From Candidatus Babelota bacterium (lineage in GTDB: Bacteria; Babelota; Babeliae; Babelales; UASB340), in assembly GCA_018897535.1 (NCBI GenBank), contig JAHIKO010000039.1, positions 1-40,746 on the forward strand: a stretch of 40,746 bases of DNA. Direction: 5' to 3'. Under the pieces are notes generated by a model. That model saw only the letters and a list, made by a program, of their open reading frames with translations. It was not told the origin of the DNA and searched no databases. The stretch's first letter is position 1. Every line of letters starts with the position of its first letter. Position numbers and translations under genes: made by a program. Below are positions 34,875-36,707 of this stretch, one piece after another.

Positions 34875-35084
34875 TTAAGGTTTTTCTTCTATCTTTTTGA
34901 TTGCTTCGAATGGACAAATTAGAACGCATTGCCCACATTTTTGACATTTTTCTTCGTTTATTTTAACTTTTCCGTCATTTTCATAAAAAATTGCATCATG
35001 AGGACAAGCTTGAATGCAACCACCACAGCCAGCACAGTTTTTTTTATTCACTAAAAATTTAATCAAACTCTTTTTATTTTCCAT
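34875..35084 (-). CDS. 2x[4Fe-4S] ferredoxin
   Basis: Two canonical motifs, CAGCGGCIQACP and CQKCGQCVLICP, in 69 aa. Overlaps the upstream gene by 11 nt. Confidence 0.85.
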   Translation of the reverse strand: MENKKSLIKFLVNKKNCAGCGGCIQACPHDAIFYENDGKVKINEEKCQKCGQCVLICPFEAIKKIEEKP

Positions 35085-35892
35085 TTTCTTGTTCTTCCAA
35101 TTTCTTTTTAATAAATGGGCAATTTGTTTCCAATTTTTTATTATCTAAAACAGCTCGAATAAATTCATTACAAGATTTTAAGCCACATTTGCCACAATTT
35201 AAATTAGGAACCAATTCTTTTAATTTTTTTCCATTCAAAAATCGATTTCTTTCAAGCGCAGGGTCAAGAATTTTGCAACCATAACAATAGCCACAAATAG
35301 CTGAAGGCATTGAATGTTTTAATGTTAGTTTTTGATTTGTTGATATGGCTAAACTTTCTTTAATGTAATCAGCAAGGTCAAAAGAACCTTCACCTGAAAG
35401 ACCATTAACTTCCACTATATGTGTTTTTGAATTTACATCTAAAACATTTACTCTAAAAATTTCTCTTTCTGCTTGAGAAATTAAATCCGCTTTACTTATT
35501 GCAATAATGTCAGCCTGCGTCAAAATTGGACCATATCTGTCGGGACTGCCTGCAGTTATATCAAGAACATTTATACCTAAGCCTTCTTTTACATATGGAG
35601 AACAACGTAAACATAAACCCGCAGTTTCTATAATTAATAAATCTCTATCGGCATATTCTTTGACCATACGTGACAATTCTAAGGCTGTATAATGATCCGG
35701 GCACAATTCTTCCGCCAATCTTTTTTCAGTTTCAACTCCACACTTTTGAGAAATAAGTTCATCATCATTAGTTTTTAAACAATCAAATTTTATGAATAAA
35801 ACATTAAATTCATGTTTTAATTTATTAATTACATGTTTTATAATACTGGTTTTTCCACATCCGGGAGTTCCTGCAAATATAACCAATTTCAT
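35074..35892 (-). CDS. G3E-family (HypB/UreG-like) P-loop GTPase fused to a C-terminal Cys-rich Fe-S cluster domain
   Basis: P-loop GTPGCGKT. CPDH sits where UreG has CPH. IIETAG (Walker B/switch II), then LCLRCSP (compare HypB NLVCPA), then SKAD (NKxD). The tail has CGYCYGC and CGKCGLKSC-x16-C (C-x2-C-x4-C-x16-C). Confidence 0.7.
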   Translation of the reverse strand: MKLVIFAGTPGCGKTSIIKHVINKLKHEFNVLFIKFDCLKTNDDELISQKCGVETEKRLAEELCPDHYTALELSRMVKEYADRDLLIIETAGLCLRCSPYVKEGLGINVLDITAGSPDRYGPILTQADIIAISKADLISQAEREIFRVNVLDVNSKTHIVEVNGLSGEGSFDLADYIKESLAISTNQKLTLKHSMPSAICGYCYGCKILDPALERNRFLNGKKLKELVPNLNCGKCGLKSCNEFIRAVLDNKKLETNCPFIKKKLEEQENGK

Positions 35893-36707
35893 TTTTTTCC
35901 CCCCAAATCATCTTTATCATATGGCTGACAAAATATTTTCACTTCATCAATTATTTTTCCCTGTCTTATATCTTCACGAATTTTCAAATTAAAGTTATCA
36001 ACCCAATTTAAATAATACGATATACCTTTCTCTTTCACGCTTGTTTCTATGACTAAATTTATTCCACCGGACTTTATTACCAAACGCTTATCAGCCTTAA
36101 GAGCCAACGCCGGATCATGAGTAACAAGAAAAACAATTTTGCCTTCATTTATTAAAATATCTATAGCATGCTCTTTTTTTATTCCGGCATTTTCAATTTC
36201 ATCAATCAAAATTATTGGCGAATCACTTATAAAAGCCACATCTGCAACCATTAAAGCTCGAGTTTGACCTCCGGATAAATTTAATAAATTCATATCTCTT
36301 GTTATCGGCTCACCTGTGATATTATTTGTGTTTTCTATAATTTTTGAAATAATATCTTCACTTAAATTTTTGCCCCTGGCTTTTATGTGAAGTTTTAAAA
36401 AATTCTCTACAGACATATCGGTTAAAAAATTCATAGACTGCGCAAGATAGGCAATCAGTTTAAATCTCGGGTCAGAACGCCATTCACGTTCGGGTTTTTG
36501 ATCATTTATAAAAATTTTTCGTTTACTTACAGTATCACCTTGTGTTAATTTTTCTATATCATATAAAAGTTGGCTTTTACCCGCACCTGTAGGCCCTACA
36601 ATAGATACAACCTGGCCTCTTTTGATATCTATTTTATCAAAATTTTCAGCTTGACCAAATTTATTAATTCCGGAAAAAATTGTTATTTTCTCTATAATAT
36701 TATTCAT
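35889..36707 (-). CDS. Soluble ABC-type ATPase with no cognate permease nearby
   Basis: Walker A GPTGAGKS, signature LSGGQ, Walker B ILIDEIE, H-loop VTHD. ATGA start/stop overlap with the downstream GTPase gene. Confidence 0.8.
   Translation of the reverse strand: MNNIIEKITIFSGINKFGQAENFDKIDIKRGQVVSIVGPTGAGKSQLLYDIEKLTQGDTVSKRKIFINDQKPEREWRSDPRFKLIAYLAQSMNFLTDMSVENFLKLHIKARGKNLSEDIISKIIENTNNITGEPITRDMNLLNLSGGQTRALMVADVAFISDSPIILIDEIENAGIKKEHAIDILINEGKIVFLVTHDPALALKADKRLVIKSGGINLVIETSVKEKGISYYLNWVDNFNLKIREDIRQGKIIDEVKIFCQPYDKDDLGGKK

Follow-up and report, generated by a model that had tools for sequence, protein, structure and literature searches.

G3E GTPases are defined by a glutamate in their G3 motif, where ExxG replaces DxxG (PMC11672702), and a 2024 Chem Rev overview lists only the UreG, HypB, MeaB and COG0523 families among them (PMC11672702). 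In HypB and UreG, the residues of the Cys-His motif (CPH in UreG) and a switch-II Cys of HypB act as ligands for Ni or Zn (PMC11672702). A full-text search of the literature yielded no description of a module that combines a GTPase of this class with an ABC ATPase and a ferredoxin, and no curated family model was found for one. Such a module is encoded in the 40,746-nucleotide stretch of DNA analysed here (the window), which comes from a genome of the Dependentiae (TM6). Our favored reading, which we hold tentatively, is that a new G3E branch and a soluble ABC ATPase together function as a ferredoxin-wired chaperone for iron or Fe-S centres.

The three-gene locus and its conservation

ORF calls yield exactly three minus-strand genes, for an ABC ATPase, a G3E GTPase and a 2x[4Fe-4S] ferredoxin (Table 1). 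The tight coupling proposed in the initial annotation is evident on reading the sequence: the stop codon of the ABC gene and the start codon of the GTPase gene share the ATGA at 35892-35889, and the start of the ferredoxin gene lies over the GTPase stop codon, giving an overlap of 11 nt (35074-35084). As also reported there, 37 nt separate the mraY stop (36745) from the ABC start (36707). The Dependentiae metagenome-assembled genome GCA_018896115.1 encodes an ABC protein with 100% identity to that of the window. Because the GTPase has homologues in 1235 clusters, the best 120 of which are 64-96% identical and have the same two-domain architecture, the trio represents real genes rather than chance ORFs.

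Table 1. Positions of the module genes, their domains and the flanking genes in the window
Feature	Position	Strand	Basis
ABC-type ATPase, soluble, 272 aa	35889..36707	-	ORF call, Pfam ABC_tran
G3E GTPase, whole gene, 272 aa	35074..35892	-	ORF call, Pfam cobW and PF04060
G3E (HypB/UreG-like) GTPase domain, residues 1-190	35323..35892	-	Pfam cobW, AF2/Foldseek
Invariant C200-x2-C203 motif ('MPSAICGYC'), linker after G domain	35284..35295	-	Alignment
Predicted RnfB/CFeSP-type [4Fe-4S] domain, GTPase C-terminal, residues 229-260	35113..35208	-	Pfam PF04060
2x[4Fe-4S] ferredoxin, 69 aa	34875..35084	-	Pfam Fer4, two repeats
mraY, immediately upstream of ABC gene	36745..37809	-	Synteny
Fused AmmeMemoRadiSam system protein B (Memo) and A (AMMECR1), convergent neighbour	32615..34249	+	NCBIfam, synteny

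The flanking genes are kept beside the trio in the Dependentiae only, and mraY is probably not functionally linked to it. The fused Memo-AMMECR1 protein is recognized by NCBIfam models TIGR04336 (192.7 bits; cut-off 26) and TIGR04335 (146.3 bits; cut-off 99). We considered AmmeMemoRadiSam as a member of the module and dropped it, given this restricted distribution and the lack of a radical SAM partner in the window. Elsewhere the window carries salvage genes, for UPRTase, a deoxynucleoside kinase and a CNT nucleoside transporter.

Related loci were collected with 10 kb on either side of the match. Synteny of the trio in related genomes, on which the earlier proposal depended, is extensive. The ABC gene lies directly upstream of the GTPase gene in every locus recovered from Dependentiae, Patescibacteria/CPR and DPANN, and the ferredoxin gene adjoins the pair in nearly all of these loci (23 of the 25 distinct related loci in which both flanks are readable). 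The rate of evolution was compared in one syntenic pair of Parcubacteria-type loci (L004 and L020), in which the module ABC proteins are 69% identical, compared with 52% for the release factor, 54% for FtsE and 36% for FtsX. The release factors of the window and of Parcubacteria were left out of this comparison because they are possibly paralogous (RF1 versus RF2). From these alignments, the module appears to be under strong purifying selection. CPR, DPANN and Dependentiae make up a large part of microbial diversity and retain very few genes. Since the module is kept in such minimal gene sets and changes more slowly than a release factor and FtsE, it is very likely important to these lineages.

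Between phyla and domains, the module proteins retain 56-79% identity; the whole close family forms a single cluster at 50% identity. Identity this high might instead be the mark of a mobile defence or selfish module spread horizontally among episymbionts, as might an archaeal sequence placed within the CPR clade by a rough neighbor-joining tree and a phage-type integrase gene 2 kb upstream in one locus. However, the Dependentiae form their own clade in the same tree, and synteny is stable both within this phylum, from mraY through Memo-AMMECR1, and between L004 and L020. Moreover, PADLOC reports nothing specific for the module, giving partial generic P-loop matches for the ABC protein and none for the GTPase, and the module consists of redox and metal proteins. 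A mobile defence or selfish role is already countered, if weakly, by these observations, and we consider it extremely improbable.

The two NTPases, the predicted Fe-S domain and the ferredoxin

Each domain named in the initial annotation is matched in Pfam by its profile (cobW/HypB/UreG, PF04060, ABC_tran and Fer4), and no NCBIfam equivalog exists for any of the three proteins. The ABC protein (ABC_tran, 55.9 bits) contains all of the motifs quoted for it (GPTGAGKS, LSGGQ, ILIDEIE and THD), and its Walker A, Q-loop, LSGGQ, Walker B with catalytic Glu, and H-loop are all invariant. The Walker B and D-loop region reads ILIDEIENAGI, and the protein has a C-terminal helix and an invariant C260. 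Its best NCBIfam equivalog match reaches 65 bits against a cut-off of 254.85. A PDB sequence search recovers generic nucleotide-binding domains (NBDs) only, and the AF2 model (pLDDT 87.1) is likewise matched by Foldseek to a generic nucleotide-binding domain. No SufC model is present among the 25 best NCBIfam matches listed, and no SufB-like neighbour was found.

Resemblance of the ABC sequence to the NBDs of MJ0796/LolD, BceA and CbiO, together with the FecCD/PBP2 importers encoded near some loci of the wider family described below, could mean that this protein is a conventional transporter ATPase, for example of a metal importer that has its permease gene at another site and with which the GTPase exchanges metal as donor or recipient. 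Yet those importers have an ABC ATPase gene of their own, and no permease gene is adjacent in any CPR-type locus. A transmembrane partner is likewise missing from more than 100 loci of the CPR type and the wider family, and, as first noted, there is no permease or binding-protein gene near the trio within the window. Natural fusions to the cytoplasmic GTPase (P0125, 509 aa; P0127, 613 aa, from an 11-member cluster) and a binding-protein-like partner that lacks a signal peptide point to a soluble complex, and we judge the transporter explanation highly improbable. Because these GTPase-ABC fusions occur naturally, the two NTPases would form one machine, in which the ABC ATPase is predicted to be an obligate partner of the GTPase.

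The motifs quoted for the GTPase (GTPGCGKT, CPDH, ETAG, SKAD, CGYCYGC and CGKCGLKSC-x16-C) are present in its translation as well, and the cobW/HypB/UreG profile matches residues 4-160 with 42 bits (cut-off 20.7). Walker A spans residues 8-15, of which G8, G11, G13, K14 and T15 are invariant. The G3 motif E89-T-A-G92 does not vary within the close family, and its Glu and Gly are invariant in the wider family too. The G4 motif is S133-K-A-D136, mostly [ST]KxD in relatives, whereas NKxD is the guanine-specificity motif. The putative metal motif is C64-P-D-H67, switch II reads E89-T-A-G-L-C94-L-R-C97, and D37-C38 is invariant. In a profile alignment, C64 and H67 fall at the positions of the HypB Cys-His and UreG CPH residues, and C97 falls at that of the HypB switch-II Cys. 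The fold agrees: the AF2 monomer model (pLDDT 89.5) has UreG or HypB structures as its top six PDB matches in Foldseek (E values 7e-11 to 3e-9; target-normalised TM 0.63-0.75), the best being UreG 4hi0 and HypB 2hf8/2wsm, with 5xkt also recovered. By sequence, PDB entries are limited to distant HypB and UreG proteins (E about 1e-8), to which the GTPase is roughly 20-24% identical.

This kinship, with the Cys/His ligand positions kept, suits a classic G3E metallochaperone for Ni, Zn or Co whose client is encoded elsewhere, with the Fe-S domain and ferredoxin serving redox regulation only. The equivalog models argue against so close a relationship. The GTPase scores 50.5 bits with HypB TIGR00073 (cut-off 121.2) and 33.1 bits with UreG TIGR00101 (cut-off 204.2), both far below threshold, as are CobW TIGR02475 (16 bits versus 332) and ZigA (15 versus 600). 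Hallmarks of COG0523/CobW were not found either: CPDH stands in place of CxCC, and CobW_C has no Pfam match. No profile places the GTPase in a characterised maturation pathway, a placement that would have told against the initial annotation.

Among 50-123 close homologues, C38, C64, H67, C94, C97, C200, C203 and the four Cys of the Fe-S domain are invariant. Even in relatives with only 28-46% identity, C64, C94 and C97 are invariant and C200-x2-C203 nearly so, the latter pair being kept even by distant relatives without the Fe-S tail. The expected conservation of the Cys motifs is accordingly observed for C200, C203 and the Fe-S domain; it does not extend to C206, the last Cys of CGYCYGC, which is Asn in 86% of 123 homologues. 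The CxxC pairs could also be a structural Zn(Cys)4 site.

The C-terminal domain is a predicted RnfB/CFeSP-type [4Fe-4S] domain (PF04060 'Putative Fe-S cluster', residues 229-260, 34.9 bits, cut-off 23). It has the spacing recognized from the outset, C233-x2-C236-x4-C241-x16-C258, with all four Cys invariant in 123 sequences, and gives local NCBIfam matches to RnfB, ACDS gamma and MobB/FeS proteins. In one related locus this domain is encoded as a separate gene beside the GTPase. The ferredoxin (Fer4, 60.3 bits over two stretches) carries the cluster motifs CAGCGGCIQACP and CQKCGQCVLICP, and conforms to the bacterial 2x[4Fe-4S] type in having two CxxCxxCxxxCP motifs and a length within about 55-80 aa.

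An RnfB-type electron-entry domain fused to a SIMIBI NTPase, with two invariant switch-II Cys and a dedicated ferredoxin, also brings to mind a nucleotide-gated pump for low-potential electrons, comparable to the nitrogenase Fe protein, the 2-hydroxyacyl-CoA dehydratase activator or the MCR-activating A2 ABC ATPase. NifH has Cys in switch II comparable to these two. Such a pump would use ferredoxin to reduce the cluster or clusters of the GTPase, and NTP hydrolysis to lower the potential or gate transfer to FTR catalytic subunit (FTRc)/thioredoxin, radical SAM or nitrogenase-like partners. Its merits, like those of the classic chaperone, are best judged from the genes that surround the module.

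Gene neighborhoods and candidate clients

The initial annotation found no Ni/Co/Fe-S client enzyme in the window, as do we, and described the module as self-contained with no visible client. The latter description fails across relatives: CPR and DPANN operons carry genes for thioredoxin, FTRc, extra ferredoxins and other metal or redox proteins. FTRc (PF02943, 79 bits; motif CPC...CPC...CHC) is encoded in 10 of 26 distinct CPR-type loci and thioredoxin beside the module in 8-10 of them, although both are missing from the immediate surroundings of the trio in Dependentiae loci, that of the window included. Further operon partners in CPR and DPANN are a CsoR-family repressor, CDF transporters, NifX-like proteins and MinD-Fer4 ATPases, and CPR-type contexts also include DUF5320 and DUF134. 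Overall, the neighborhood consists mostly of Fe-S, thiol-redox and metal genes.

A wider family, found in metagenomes of anaerobes that include human-gut samples, has adjacent GTPase and ABC genes in about 80 loci. Here most members lack the Fe-S domain, and the pair is accompanied by a cytoplasmic DUF1858+SBP_bac_6 protein without a signal peptide. The core is the GTPase-ABC pair, and the ferredoxin and Fe-S tail are lineage-specific additions. Wider-family loci frequently lie near genes for a Crp-type regulator, Hcp or iron uptake, and other neighbors include Fe-chelate importers (FecCD/PBP2), a flavodiiron protein and thioredoxin reductase. A radical SAM enzyme is encoded between two GTPase copies in one locus, and nitrogenase-like NifH/NifDK proteins, which occur with homocitrate synthase, are encoded in two others.

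Thus, users of low-potential electrons (FTRc, radical SAM and NifH/NifDK-like proteins) are indeed nearby, as expected of an electron pump. However, most wider-family members have neither Fe-S domain nor ferredoxin, and have an SBP-like protein instead, so that cargo handling fits better than electron pumping. In addition, nothing associated with the module would serve as a flavin or NAD(P)H entry point. Plant-type FTR takes its electrons directly from ferredoxin and requires no NTP, which also weighs against a pump. We regard electron pumping as rather unlikely.

For a Ni, Zn or Co chaperone, support comes from a CDF metal-efflux gene no more than 360 bp away in several loci, a CsoR/RcnR-family repressor gene that heads the operon in others, and an 80-aa zinc-ribbon protein encoded after the pair in 10 wider-family loci, whose similarity to HypA is weak (E 2.5e-4, below cut-off). 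In contrast, a motif scan and inspection of contexts in about 110 neighborhoods reveal no urease, [NiFe] hydrogenase, CODH or B12 enzyme, and neither the window nor these neighborhoods contain hypA/CDEF. Known G3E chaperones need no ABC ATPase or dedicated ferredoxin, and the recurrent neighbors here are Fe-S proteins. We consider this classic role unlikely, if still worth weighing.

Sensing, the other role suggested initially, finds no specific support. In a redox or metal sensor-regulator, the Fe-S tail would report iron status or the redox state of ferredoxin, and the NTPases would relay the signal. The Cys-rich sites and predicted Fe-S domain might be oxidation-sensitive, and the wider family often neighbors nitrosative-stress genes, namely those for Crp-family regulators and Hcp. 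Nevertheless, the proteins lack an output domain, be it DNA-binding, kinase or other, the regulators (CsoR-like, Crp-like and DUF134) have genes of their own, and two energy-consuming NTPases conserved more strongly than housekeeping proteins would be atypical of a sensor. This makes a sensory role very unlikely.

A point against an iron or Fe-S chaperone is that none of the loci has an adjoining gene for a cysteine desulfurase, a U-type or A-type scaffold or a SufB-like protein. Most archaeal [FeFe] hydrogenases are reported to be without HydEFG (PMC11216029), and for this reason all neighborhood ORFs were scanned for hydrogenase motifs. Neither the [FeFe] H-cluster motif nor the [NiFe] N-terminal RxCGxC motif was found, and the single DPCxxC match is a RecR-family protein. 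We keep hydrogenase maturation solely as an improbable idea, taken up below.

A proposed function and its relation to known systems

Returning to the iron or Fe-S chaperone that we favor, the most probable task of the module is to load iron or iron-sulfur centres or to repair them, the trio being the Dependentiae version of a proposed two-NTPase metallocentre chaperone. By alignment, the G domain retains the nucleotide-responsive metal site of HypB and UreG (C64, H67 and C97), which would be enlarged by C94, C38 and C200-x2-C203. Dimerization on GTP could then create an interfacial, thiolate-rich site that holds iron or a labile Fe-S cluster, and GTP hydrolysis would shift switch II and hand the cargo to a client. 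The co-translated ferredoxin may pass electrons to the RnfB-type domain, where they would maintain the ligand thiols or the iron in reduced form, or power the reductive formation of a cluster. With ATP, the ABC dimer might clamp, remodel or reset the GTPase or client, by analogy with the action of SufC on SufB/D. Likely clients would be the [4Fe-4S] proteins encoded next to the module in relatives, with FTRc the commonest candidate; the Dependentiae client would be encoded elsewhere in the genome. The CDF transporters and CsoR-family repressors suit handling of Ni, Co, Zn or Cu equally well. Also against this reading, FTRc and thioredoxin join the module in no more than about a third of CPR-type loci and in none from Dependentiae, and the ABC protein is by sequence and fold a generic NBD that shows no particular likeness to SufC or SmsC.

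A bolder version of this proposal holds that the GTPase-ABC pair is a fifth branch of G3E metallochaperones and, with ferredoxin, a stand-alone two-NTPase machine for assembly or repair of Fe-S or iron cofactors. It could be the principal and possibly essential route of [4Fe-4S] maturation, for example of FTR, in Patescibacteria, DPANN and Dependentiae, or a missing maturase, for example for archaeal [FeFe] hydrogenases without HydEFG. We think this quite unlikely, but if true it would account for conservation above that of translation and division proteins in minimal genomes. More generally, a ferredoxin-wired G3E GTPase that requires an ABC ATPase would be a new architecture for nucleotide-dependent metallochaperones. 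Since the wider family is present in anaerobe metagenomes, a function established in a tractable anaerobe would be transferable to the uncultivated lineages.

Among known systems, HypB and UreG share with the GTPase the SIMIBI/G3E fold, Walker A, the ExxG switch II, the Cys...His motif and the switch-II Cys, and by analogy the GTPase probably dimerizes on GTP around an interfacial metal site as they do. Unlike them, it adds invariant C38, C94, C200 and C203 and a fused, predicted [4Fe-4S] domain, carries S/T-K-x-D rather than NKxD as G4, has a predicted obligate ABC ATPase partner, and lies near neither HypA/UreE/F/H partners nor a Ni enzyme. The Nbp35/Cfd1 and ApbC/Mrp carriers are analogous in combining a SIMIBI NTPase with a stable [4Fe-4S] domain, a CxxC near switch II and dependence on an electron donor. 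The CxxC of Nbp35/ApbC could hold a labile bridging cluster, for which the GTPase offers a candidate site. However, these carriers belong to the MinD/Mrp family and the GTPase to G3E, and homology is limited to the P-loop fold.

SufC and SmsC resemble the ABC protein, by analogy, in being single-NBD ATPases that lack a membrane partner and have a cytoplasmic metallocentre scaffold as proposed substrate. SmsC (9h78_C) ranks 25th among the structural matches, no better than transporter NBDs, and neither sequence nor structure shows a specific affinity to SufC or SmsC. Where these pair with SufB/D or SmsB, the module ABC protein has a G3E GTPase as its partner, and its D-loop region, DEIENAGI, is unusual. 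With the PF04060 domains of RnfB and CFeSP (AcsC, CdhE), the Fe-S tail of the GTPase shares C-x2-C-x4-C-x16-C; it scores above the Pfam cut-off, its four Cys are invariant, and it presumably receives ferredoxin electrons as they do. Theirs are N-terminal, whereas that of the module is C-terminal on a GTPase. In NCBIfam, a comparable architecture was found in the MobB/FeS fusion (NF011063) only, as a local match.

HydF is also a GTPase with an Fe-S cluster, as predicted here, and a metallocofactor scaffold or carrier, as proposed here. It is of the TrmE/Era type and not homologous, and hydA, hydE and hydG are absent near the module in all loci. Finally, the known ferredoxin-FTRc-thioredoxin system needs no NTPase, and Dependentiae loci have no FTRc or thioredoxin gene beside the trio; in 8-10 of the 26 distinct CPR and DPANN loci, by contrast, the module and this system share one tight operon. 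Through this arrangement, the proposed chaperone may be connected with a poorly understood group, the non-photosynthetic ferredoxin:thioredoxin reductase systems.

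The coupled trio and its setting in the window

The genes for the ABC ATPase, the G3E GTPase and the ferredoxin are consecutive and translationally coupled on the minus strand, as the initial annotation had claimed. Specifically, direct reading of the DNA reveals that the ABC stop and the GTPase start have ATGA in common, and that the GTPase and ferredoxin genes overlap by 11 nt. Pfam profiles likewise bear out the proposed identities. The ABC protein matches ABC_tran (55.9 bits), the GTPase matches cobW/HypB/UreG over residues 4-160 (42 bits) and PF04060, 'Putative Fe-S cluster', over residues 229-260 (34.9 bits, cut-off 23), and the ferredoxin carries two Fer4 repeats (60.3 bits). 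Simple scans of the window for promoter and terminator signals yield none above shuffled expectation, and tight gene spacing is the only operon evidence inside the window.

The surrounding DNA (G+C ~28%) carries diderm housekeeping genes (FtsA/FtsZ, MraY, BamD-like, TamB-like and T2SS/T4P ATPase) and salvage genes (UPRTase, deoxynucleoside kinase and CNT nucleoside transporter). The ABC protein recurs unchanged (100% identity) in Dependentiae MAG GCA_018896115.1, and the GTPase counterpart in TM6 bacterium UASB340 is 96% identical. Because the 40 kb contain no Ni, Co or Fe-S client enzyme, permease, thioredoxin or ferredoxin:thioredoxin reductase (FTR) gene, the earlier description of a trio with no visible client enzyme is accurate.

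Near the trio, one gene fuses Memo (AmmeMemoRadiSam system protein B, 192.7 bits) to AMMECR1 (protein A of that system, 146.3 bits), each score exceeding its NCBIfam cut-off. Every Dependentiae locus keeps this fusion as the convergent neighbour of the trio, and the system's radical SAM partner was not found in the 40 kb window. Elsewhere, one protein has a lipoprotein-like N-terminus (…LTLNISAC…), and its homologue in the related locus L023 matches PF00670 (AdoHcyase NAD-binding domain) only, an odd pairing for an exported protein. The mechanically listed ORF that overlaps two tRNA genes is almost certainly spurious.

Coordinates of features in the window and in related loci (L numbers)
Feature	Sequence	Positions	Strand	Product	Remark
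ABC ATPase gene	window	36707-35889	minus	272 aa	six-frame ORF list
G3E GTPase gene	window	35892-35074	minus	272 aa	six-frame ORF list
Ferredoxin gene	window	35084-34875	minus	69 aa	six-frame ORF list
mraY	window	36745-37809			37-nt gap precedes trio
Memo-AMMECR1 fusion	window	32615-34249	plus	544 aa	
Protein with lipoprotein-like N-terminus	window	38586-39800	plus	404 aa	
Two tandem AAA_28-domain genes	window	18199-19755	plus	316 and 198 aa	
ORF without Pfam match	window	2398-5442	minus	1014 aa	
Bacterial RRM-domain protein	window	19825-20196	minus	123 aa	
ORF overlapping tRNA genes	window	26398-26796	minus	132 aa	tRNA-Asn and tRNA-Asp on opposite strand
GTPase gene in two pieces	L017	1796-2808			
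Split FTR catalytic-subunit gene	L011	2273-2617			
Ferredoxin with Gly/Arg-rich tail	L013	6746-7084			
Ferredoxin with Gly/Arg-rich tail	L014	1997-2371			
Ferredoxin with Gly/Arg-rich tail	L018	2479-2841			
Ferredoxin with Gly/Arg-rich tail	L112	3098-3391			
CDF protein with Cys-rich tail	L006	5808-6836			also L009, L015, L016, L110, L112
Cluster ending in GTPase-ABC fusion	L024	724-9530			
Operon with two GTPase paralogues	L029	7001-10364			

Distribution and conservation of the trio

Homologues of the GTPase form 1235 clusters at 90% identity, and the best 120 of these are 64-96% identical and all combine PF02492 with PF04060. Their source names include Dependentiae/Babeliales, Parcubacteria, Wolfebacteria and Portnoybacteria. 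When the close family is searched against 1.84 billion 50%-identity representatives, it proves to be a single cluster at that level, and only 336 representatives reach E<=1e-3. With a single genome taken for each GTDB species, a scan gives 20 loci, which belong to Dependentiae, to many Patescibacteria and to two archaea, DPANN or unclassified, with Woesearchaeota among them. Taxon labels from binning projects ('Saccharibacteria', 'Bdellovibrionales') may be unreliable for several MAGs.

The synteny of the trio in related genomes is upheld by the CPR-type loci, which come from Dependentiae, Patescibacteria and DPANN. The ABC gene, whose product is 58-97% identical to that of the window, lies directly upstream of the GTPase gene in 26/26 distinct loci. 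The 2x[4Fe-4S] ferredoxin is a near-universal neighbour, flanking the pair in 23/25 loci with both flanks readable; this is not so in L022, where an unrelated 209-aa protein takes that place, nor in L027, from a more distant archaeon. Dependentiae keep the order mraY - ABC - GTPase - ferredoxin - (small variable genes) - Memo/AMMECR1 (convergent).

Loci L004 and L020 have in common the arrangement RF-FtsE-FtsX-...-ABC-GTPase (RF, release factor). Between them the module ABC is 69% identical, compared with 52% for RF, 54% for FtsE and 36% for FtsX, and by this measure the module is conserved more strongly than housekeeping genes. A rough neighbour-joining tree, which is only indicative, groups the Dependentiae as a clade and shows a CPR clade that encloses a single archaeal sequence, with Woesearchaeota and a 42%-identical archaeal homologue basal. 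Purifying selection is strong, apparently throughout the family, and the data suggest mostly vertical descent within phyla with some inter-domain transfer. In L017, the GTPase gene appears interrupted or partially duplicated, its two matching pieces (query residues 1-93 and 53-263) lying ~100 nt apart; an assembly artefact, a pseudogene or an insertion could explain this.

The GTPase and its ABC partner

Invariance was scored in 123 close GTPase homologues and in a 50-sequence alignment (A1). Residues C38 (FDC), C64 and H67 (CPDH), C94 and C97 (ETAGLCLRC, switch II), C200 and C203, and C233, C236, C241 and C258 of the PF04060 domain are invariant; C12 and C51 are not conserved. Thus the cysteine motifs singled out by the initial annotation hold at C200, C203 and the PF04060 domain, but not at C206, the third cysteine of CGYCYGC, which is replaced by Asn in 86% of homologues. 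In the A1 profile, C64/H67 align with the Cys-His of archaeal HypB and the Cys-Pro-His of UreG, and C97 aligns with the switch-II Cys of HypB. The equivalent residues of HypB and UreG are nucleotide-responsive Ni/Zn ligands at the dimer interface (PMC11672702). The alignments therefore establish HypB/UreG-type positions for putative ligands, extra invariant cysteines and a retained RnfB-type cluster motif.

The AF2 model of the GTPase (pLDDT 89.5) finds its best PDB matches in UreG and HypB, and the protein has the Walker A, ExxG, fold and metal motif of G3E. However, it scores 50.5 against a curated threshold of 121.2 for HypB and 33.1 against 204.2 for UreG, and also falls below the thresholds for CobW/ZigA, so that no profile model assigns it to these families. 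Because their genomic partners are absent as well, the GTPase is best regarded as a separate branch of G3E. A 2024 review recognizes only UreG, HypB, MeaB and COG0523 as G3E families (PMC11672702), and we found no description of this branch in the literature searched.

GTPase-ABC pairing is obligate and extends to fusions. In two protein representatives, P0125 (509 aa) and P0127 (613 aa, from an 11-member cluster), one polypeptide combines both proteins, the GTPase N-terminal and the ABC C-terminal, and its ABC half has the unusual motifs of the window ABC (I.I.PG.NK.GE...F and LIDE[IV]ENAGI). Given these fusions, an adjacency that is invariable in >100 loci and the lack of any permease partner in those loci, the ABC protein is, as judged from sequence, a soluble partner of the GTPase and not a transporter subunit; we consider a transporter ATPase very improbable. 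Its AF2 model (pLDDT 87.1) is a generic nucleotide-binding domain with a long C-terminal helix and resembles neither SufC nor SmsC in particular. A C-terminal cysteine, C260, is invariant in the ABC of the close family.

Gene neighbourhoods and candidate functions

Flanking ORFs were clustered and then checked against Pfam, with more neighbourhoods added afterwards; counts derive from our own ORF calling and BLAST clustering within <=10 kb on each side. The fullest operon (L114; also L011-L013) reads CsoR-family repressor - thioredoxin - ABC - GTPase(FeS) - ferredoxin - FTR catalytic subunit (FTRc) - ferredoxin, with intergenic gaps of 4-14 nt. FTRc (PF02943, 79 bits, CPC...CPC...CHC) occurs within 700 bp in 9/26 distinct loci and at 3.1 kb in one more, thioredoxin within 1.1 kb in 8/26 and further away in two, a CsoR-like repressor in 5/26, and a CDF cation-efflux gene within 360 bp in 4/26 and further away in three. 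A thioredoxin gene heads both archaeal loci, L016 (Trx - Fdx - ABC - GTPase) and L018 (Trx - ABC - GTPase, then ferredoxin downstream). NifX-like proteins (PF02579), MinD/ParA ATPases with an inserted ferredoxin domain, DUF5320 and DUF134 also recur. In relatives, then, the module is embedded in an island of ferredoxin-to-thioredoxin thiol redox and Fe-S/metal handling, and the ABC-GTPase-ferredoxin core is all that Dependentiae retain at the locus. From this context, the 'missing client' becomes partly visible.

Ferredoxins adjoining the module in CPR/DPANN often have Gly/Arg-rich tails (GRGMGNGQGRG...) resembling DUF5320, and the module of L112 is flanked by a stand-alone DUF5320 gene, two NifX-like genes, a MinD-Fer4 ATPase and DUF134. 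These features join the module to a widespread anaerobe gene cluster of unknown function. In L011, the FTRc gene is split into two short ORFs with motif cysteines lost (CPC to FSC or CPH), and looks like a decaying copy beside an intact module. The CDF protein encoded repeatedly just downstream of the module ends, at its C-terminus, in a Cys-rich tail resembling a zinc ribbon (…CVCQKCGYK…CPNCHSF…).

A search of representatives also recovers a wider family (~230 aa, 28-46% identical) that is without the Fe-S tail and keeps the cysteine signature; in alignment A3, there is no variation at C64-P65, E/G/L/C94 or C97 and almost none in the downstream CxxC. Scanning metagenomes with the pattern E[TS]AGLCxRC[SAT] gives at least 570 relatives; 80 of their loci were retrieved and analysed together with L024-L029 (86 loci). 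The ABC here has an N-terminal extension of ~70 aa. In 63/86 loci the pair is accompanied by a ~400-aa DUF1858 + SBP_bac_6 protein (260 bits) that has no signal peptide and whose invariant residues include C92 (LPCP), D140, D187 and H268, and in 10 loci it is followed by an 80-aa zinc-ribbon protein with weak HypA similarity. Other genes nearby encode Crp-family regulators (9 loci), Fe-chelate-type importers (8-9 loci), hybrid cluster protein and thioredoxin reductase (4 loci each), a flavodiiron protein, and a nitrogenase-like NifH/NifDK set accompanied by homocitrate synthase. What these settings share is a link to Fe-S enzymes, to the supply of iron, and to thiol or nitrosative stress. Sources include a Sphaerochaetaceae MAG (one named member) and human-gut and fermenter metagenomes.

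Individual loci vary this theme. L028 has the order ABC - GTPase - separate PF04060 protein. The L029 operon, which adjoins a four-subunit 2-oxoacid:ferredoxin oxidoreductase, encodes GTPase - 440-aa radical SAM enzyme - second GTPase paralogue - ABC; the radical SAM enzyme has an N-terminal wHTH-like region, and its best NCBIfam match, HxsC4, is far below cut-off. The L024 cluster, an uncharacterised nitrogenase-like system, combines one NifH-like protein and a pair of NifD/K-like ones (Oxidored_nitro) with a Peripla_BP_2/FecCD/ABC importer and a cytoplasmic SBP_bac_6-like protein; a gene with a thioredoxin domain lies upstream.

The reading that we tentatively favour is a G3E GTPase and soluble ABC ATPase, wired to ferredoxin, that chaperone iron or Fe-S centres. 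The G-domain site would hold iron or a labile Fe-S cluster rather than Ni/Zn, electrons from ferredoxin would pass via the C-terminal cluster of the GTPase, GTP hydrolysis would release the cargo, and the ABC dimer would remodel or reset the complex, with FTRc and other [4Fe-4S] proteins as clients. A classic Ni/Zn/Co chaperone with a distant client would accord with the HypB/UreG-type ligand positions, but is unlikely; no urease, hydrogenase, CODH or B12 enzyme occurs among the neighbourhoods examined. The ferredoxin and the cluster domain might instead serve an NTP-gated low-potential electron pump, which is unlikely too, and slightly more so. A sensor is improbable, and a defence or mobile element, for which PADLOC is negative, is scarcely credible. 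The remaining probability belongs to functions outside these readings.

More broadly, the chaperone module could be a stand-alone system for Fe-S or iron-cofactor biogenesis or repair, central to CPR/DPANN/Dependentiae physiology, and might include the maturation of archaeal [FeFe] hydrogenases, some of which lack HydEFG and mature in an unexplained manner (PMC11216029). We regard this proposal as a whole as doubtful because the hydrogenase link has no contextual support in the neighbourhoods scanned.

As a kind of system, G3E nucleotide-dependent metallochaperones are already known. What is new here, as far as the literature searched describes such systems, is the combination of a further G3E branch with an obligate soluble ABC partner, a fused RnfB-type domain, and a link to ferredoxin, FTR and thioredoxin.
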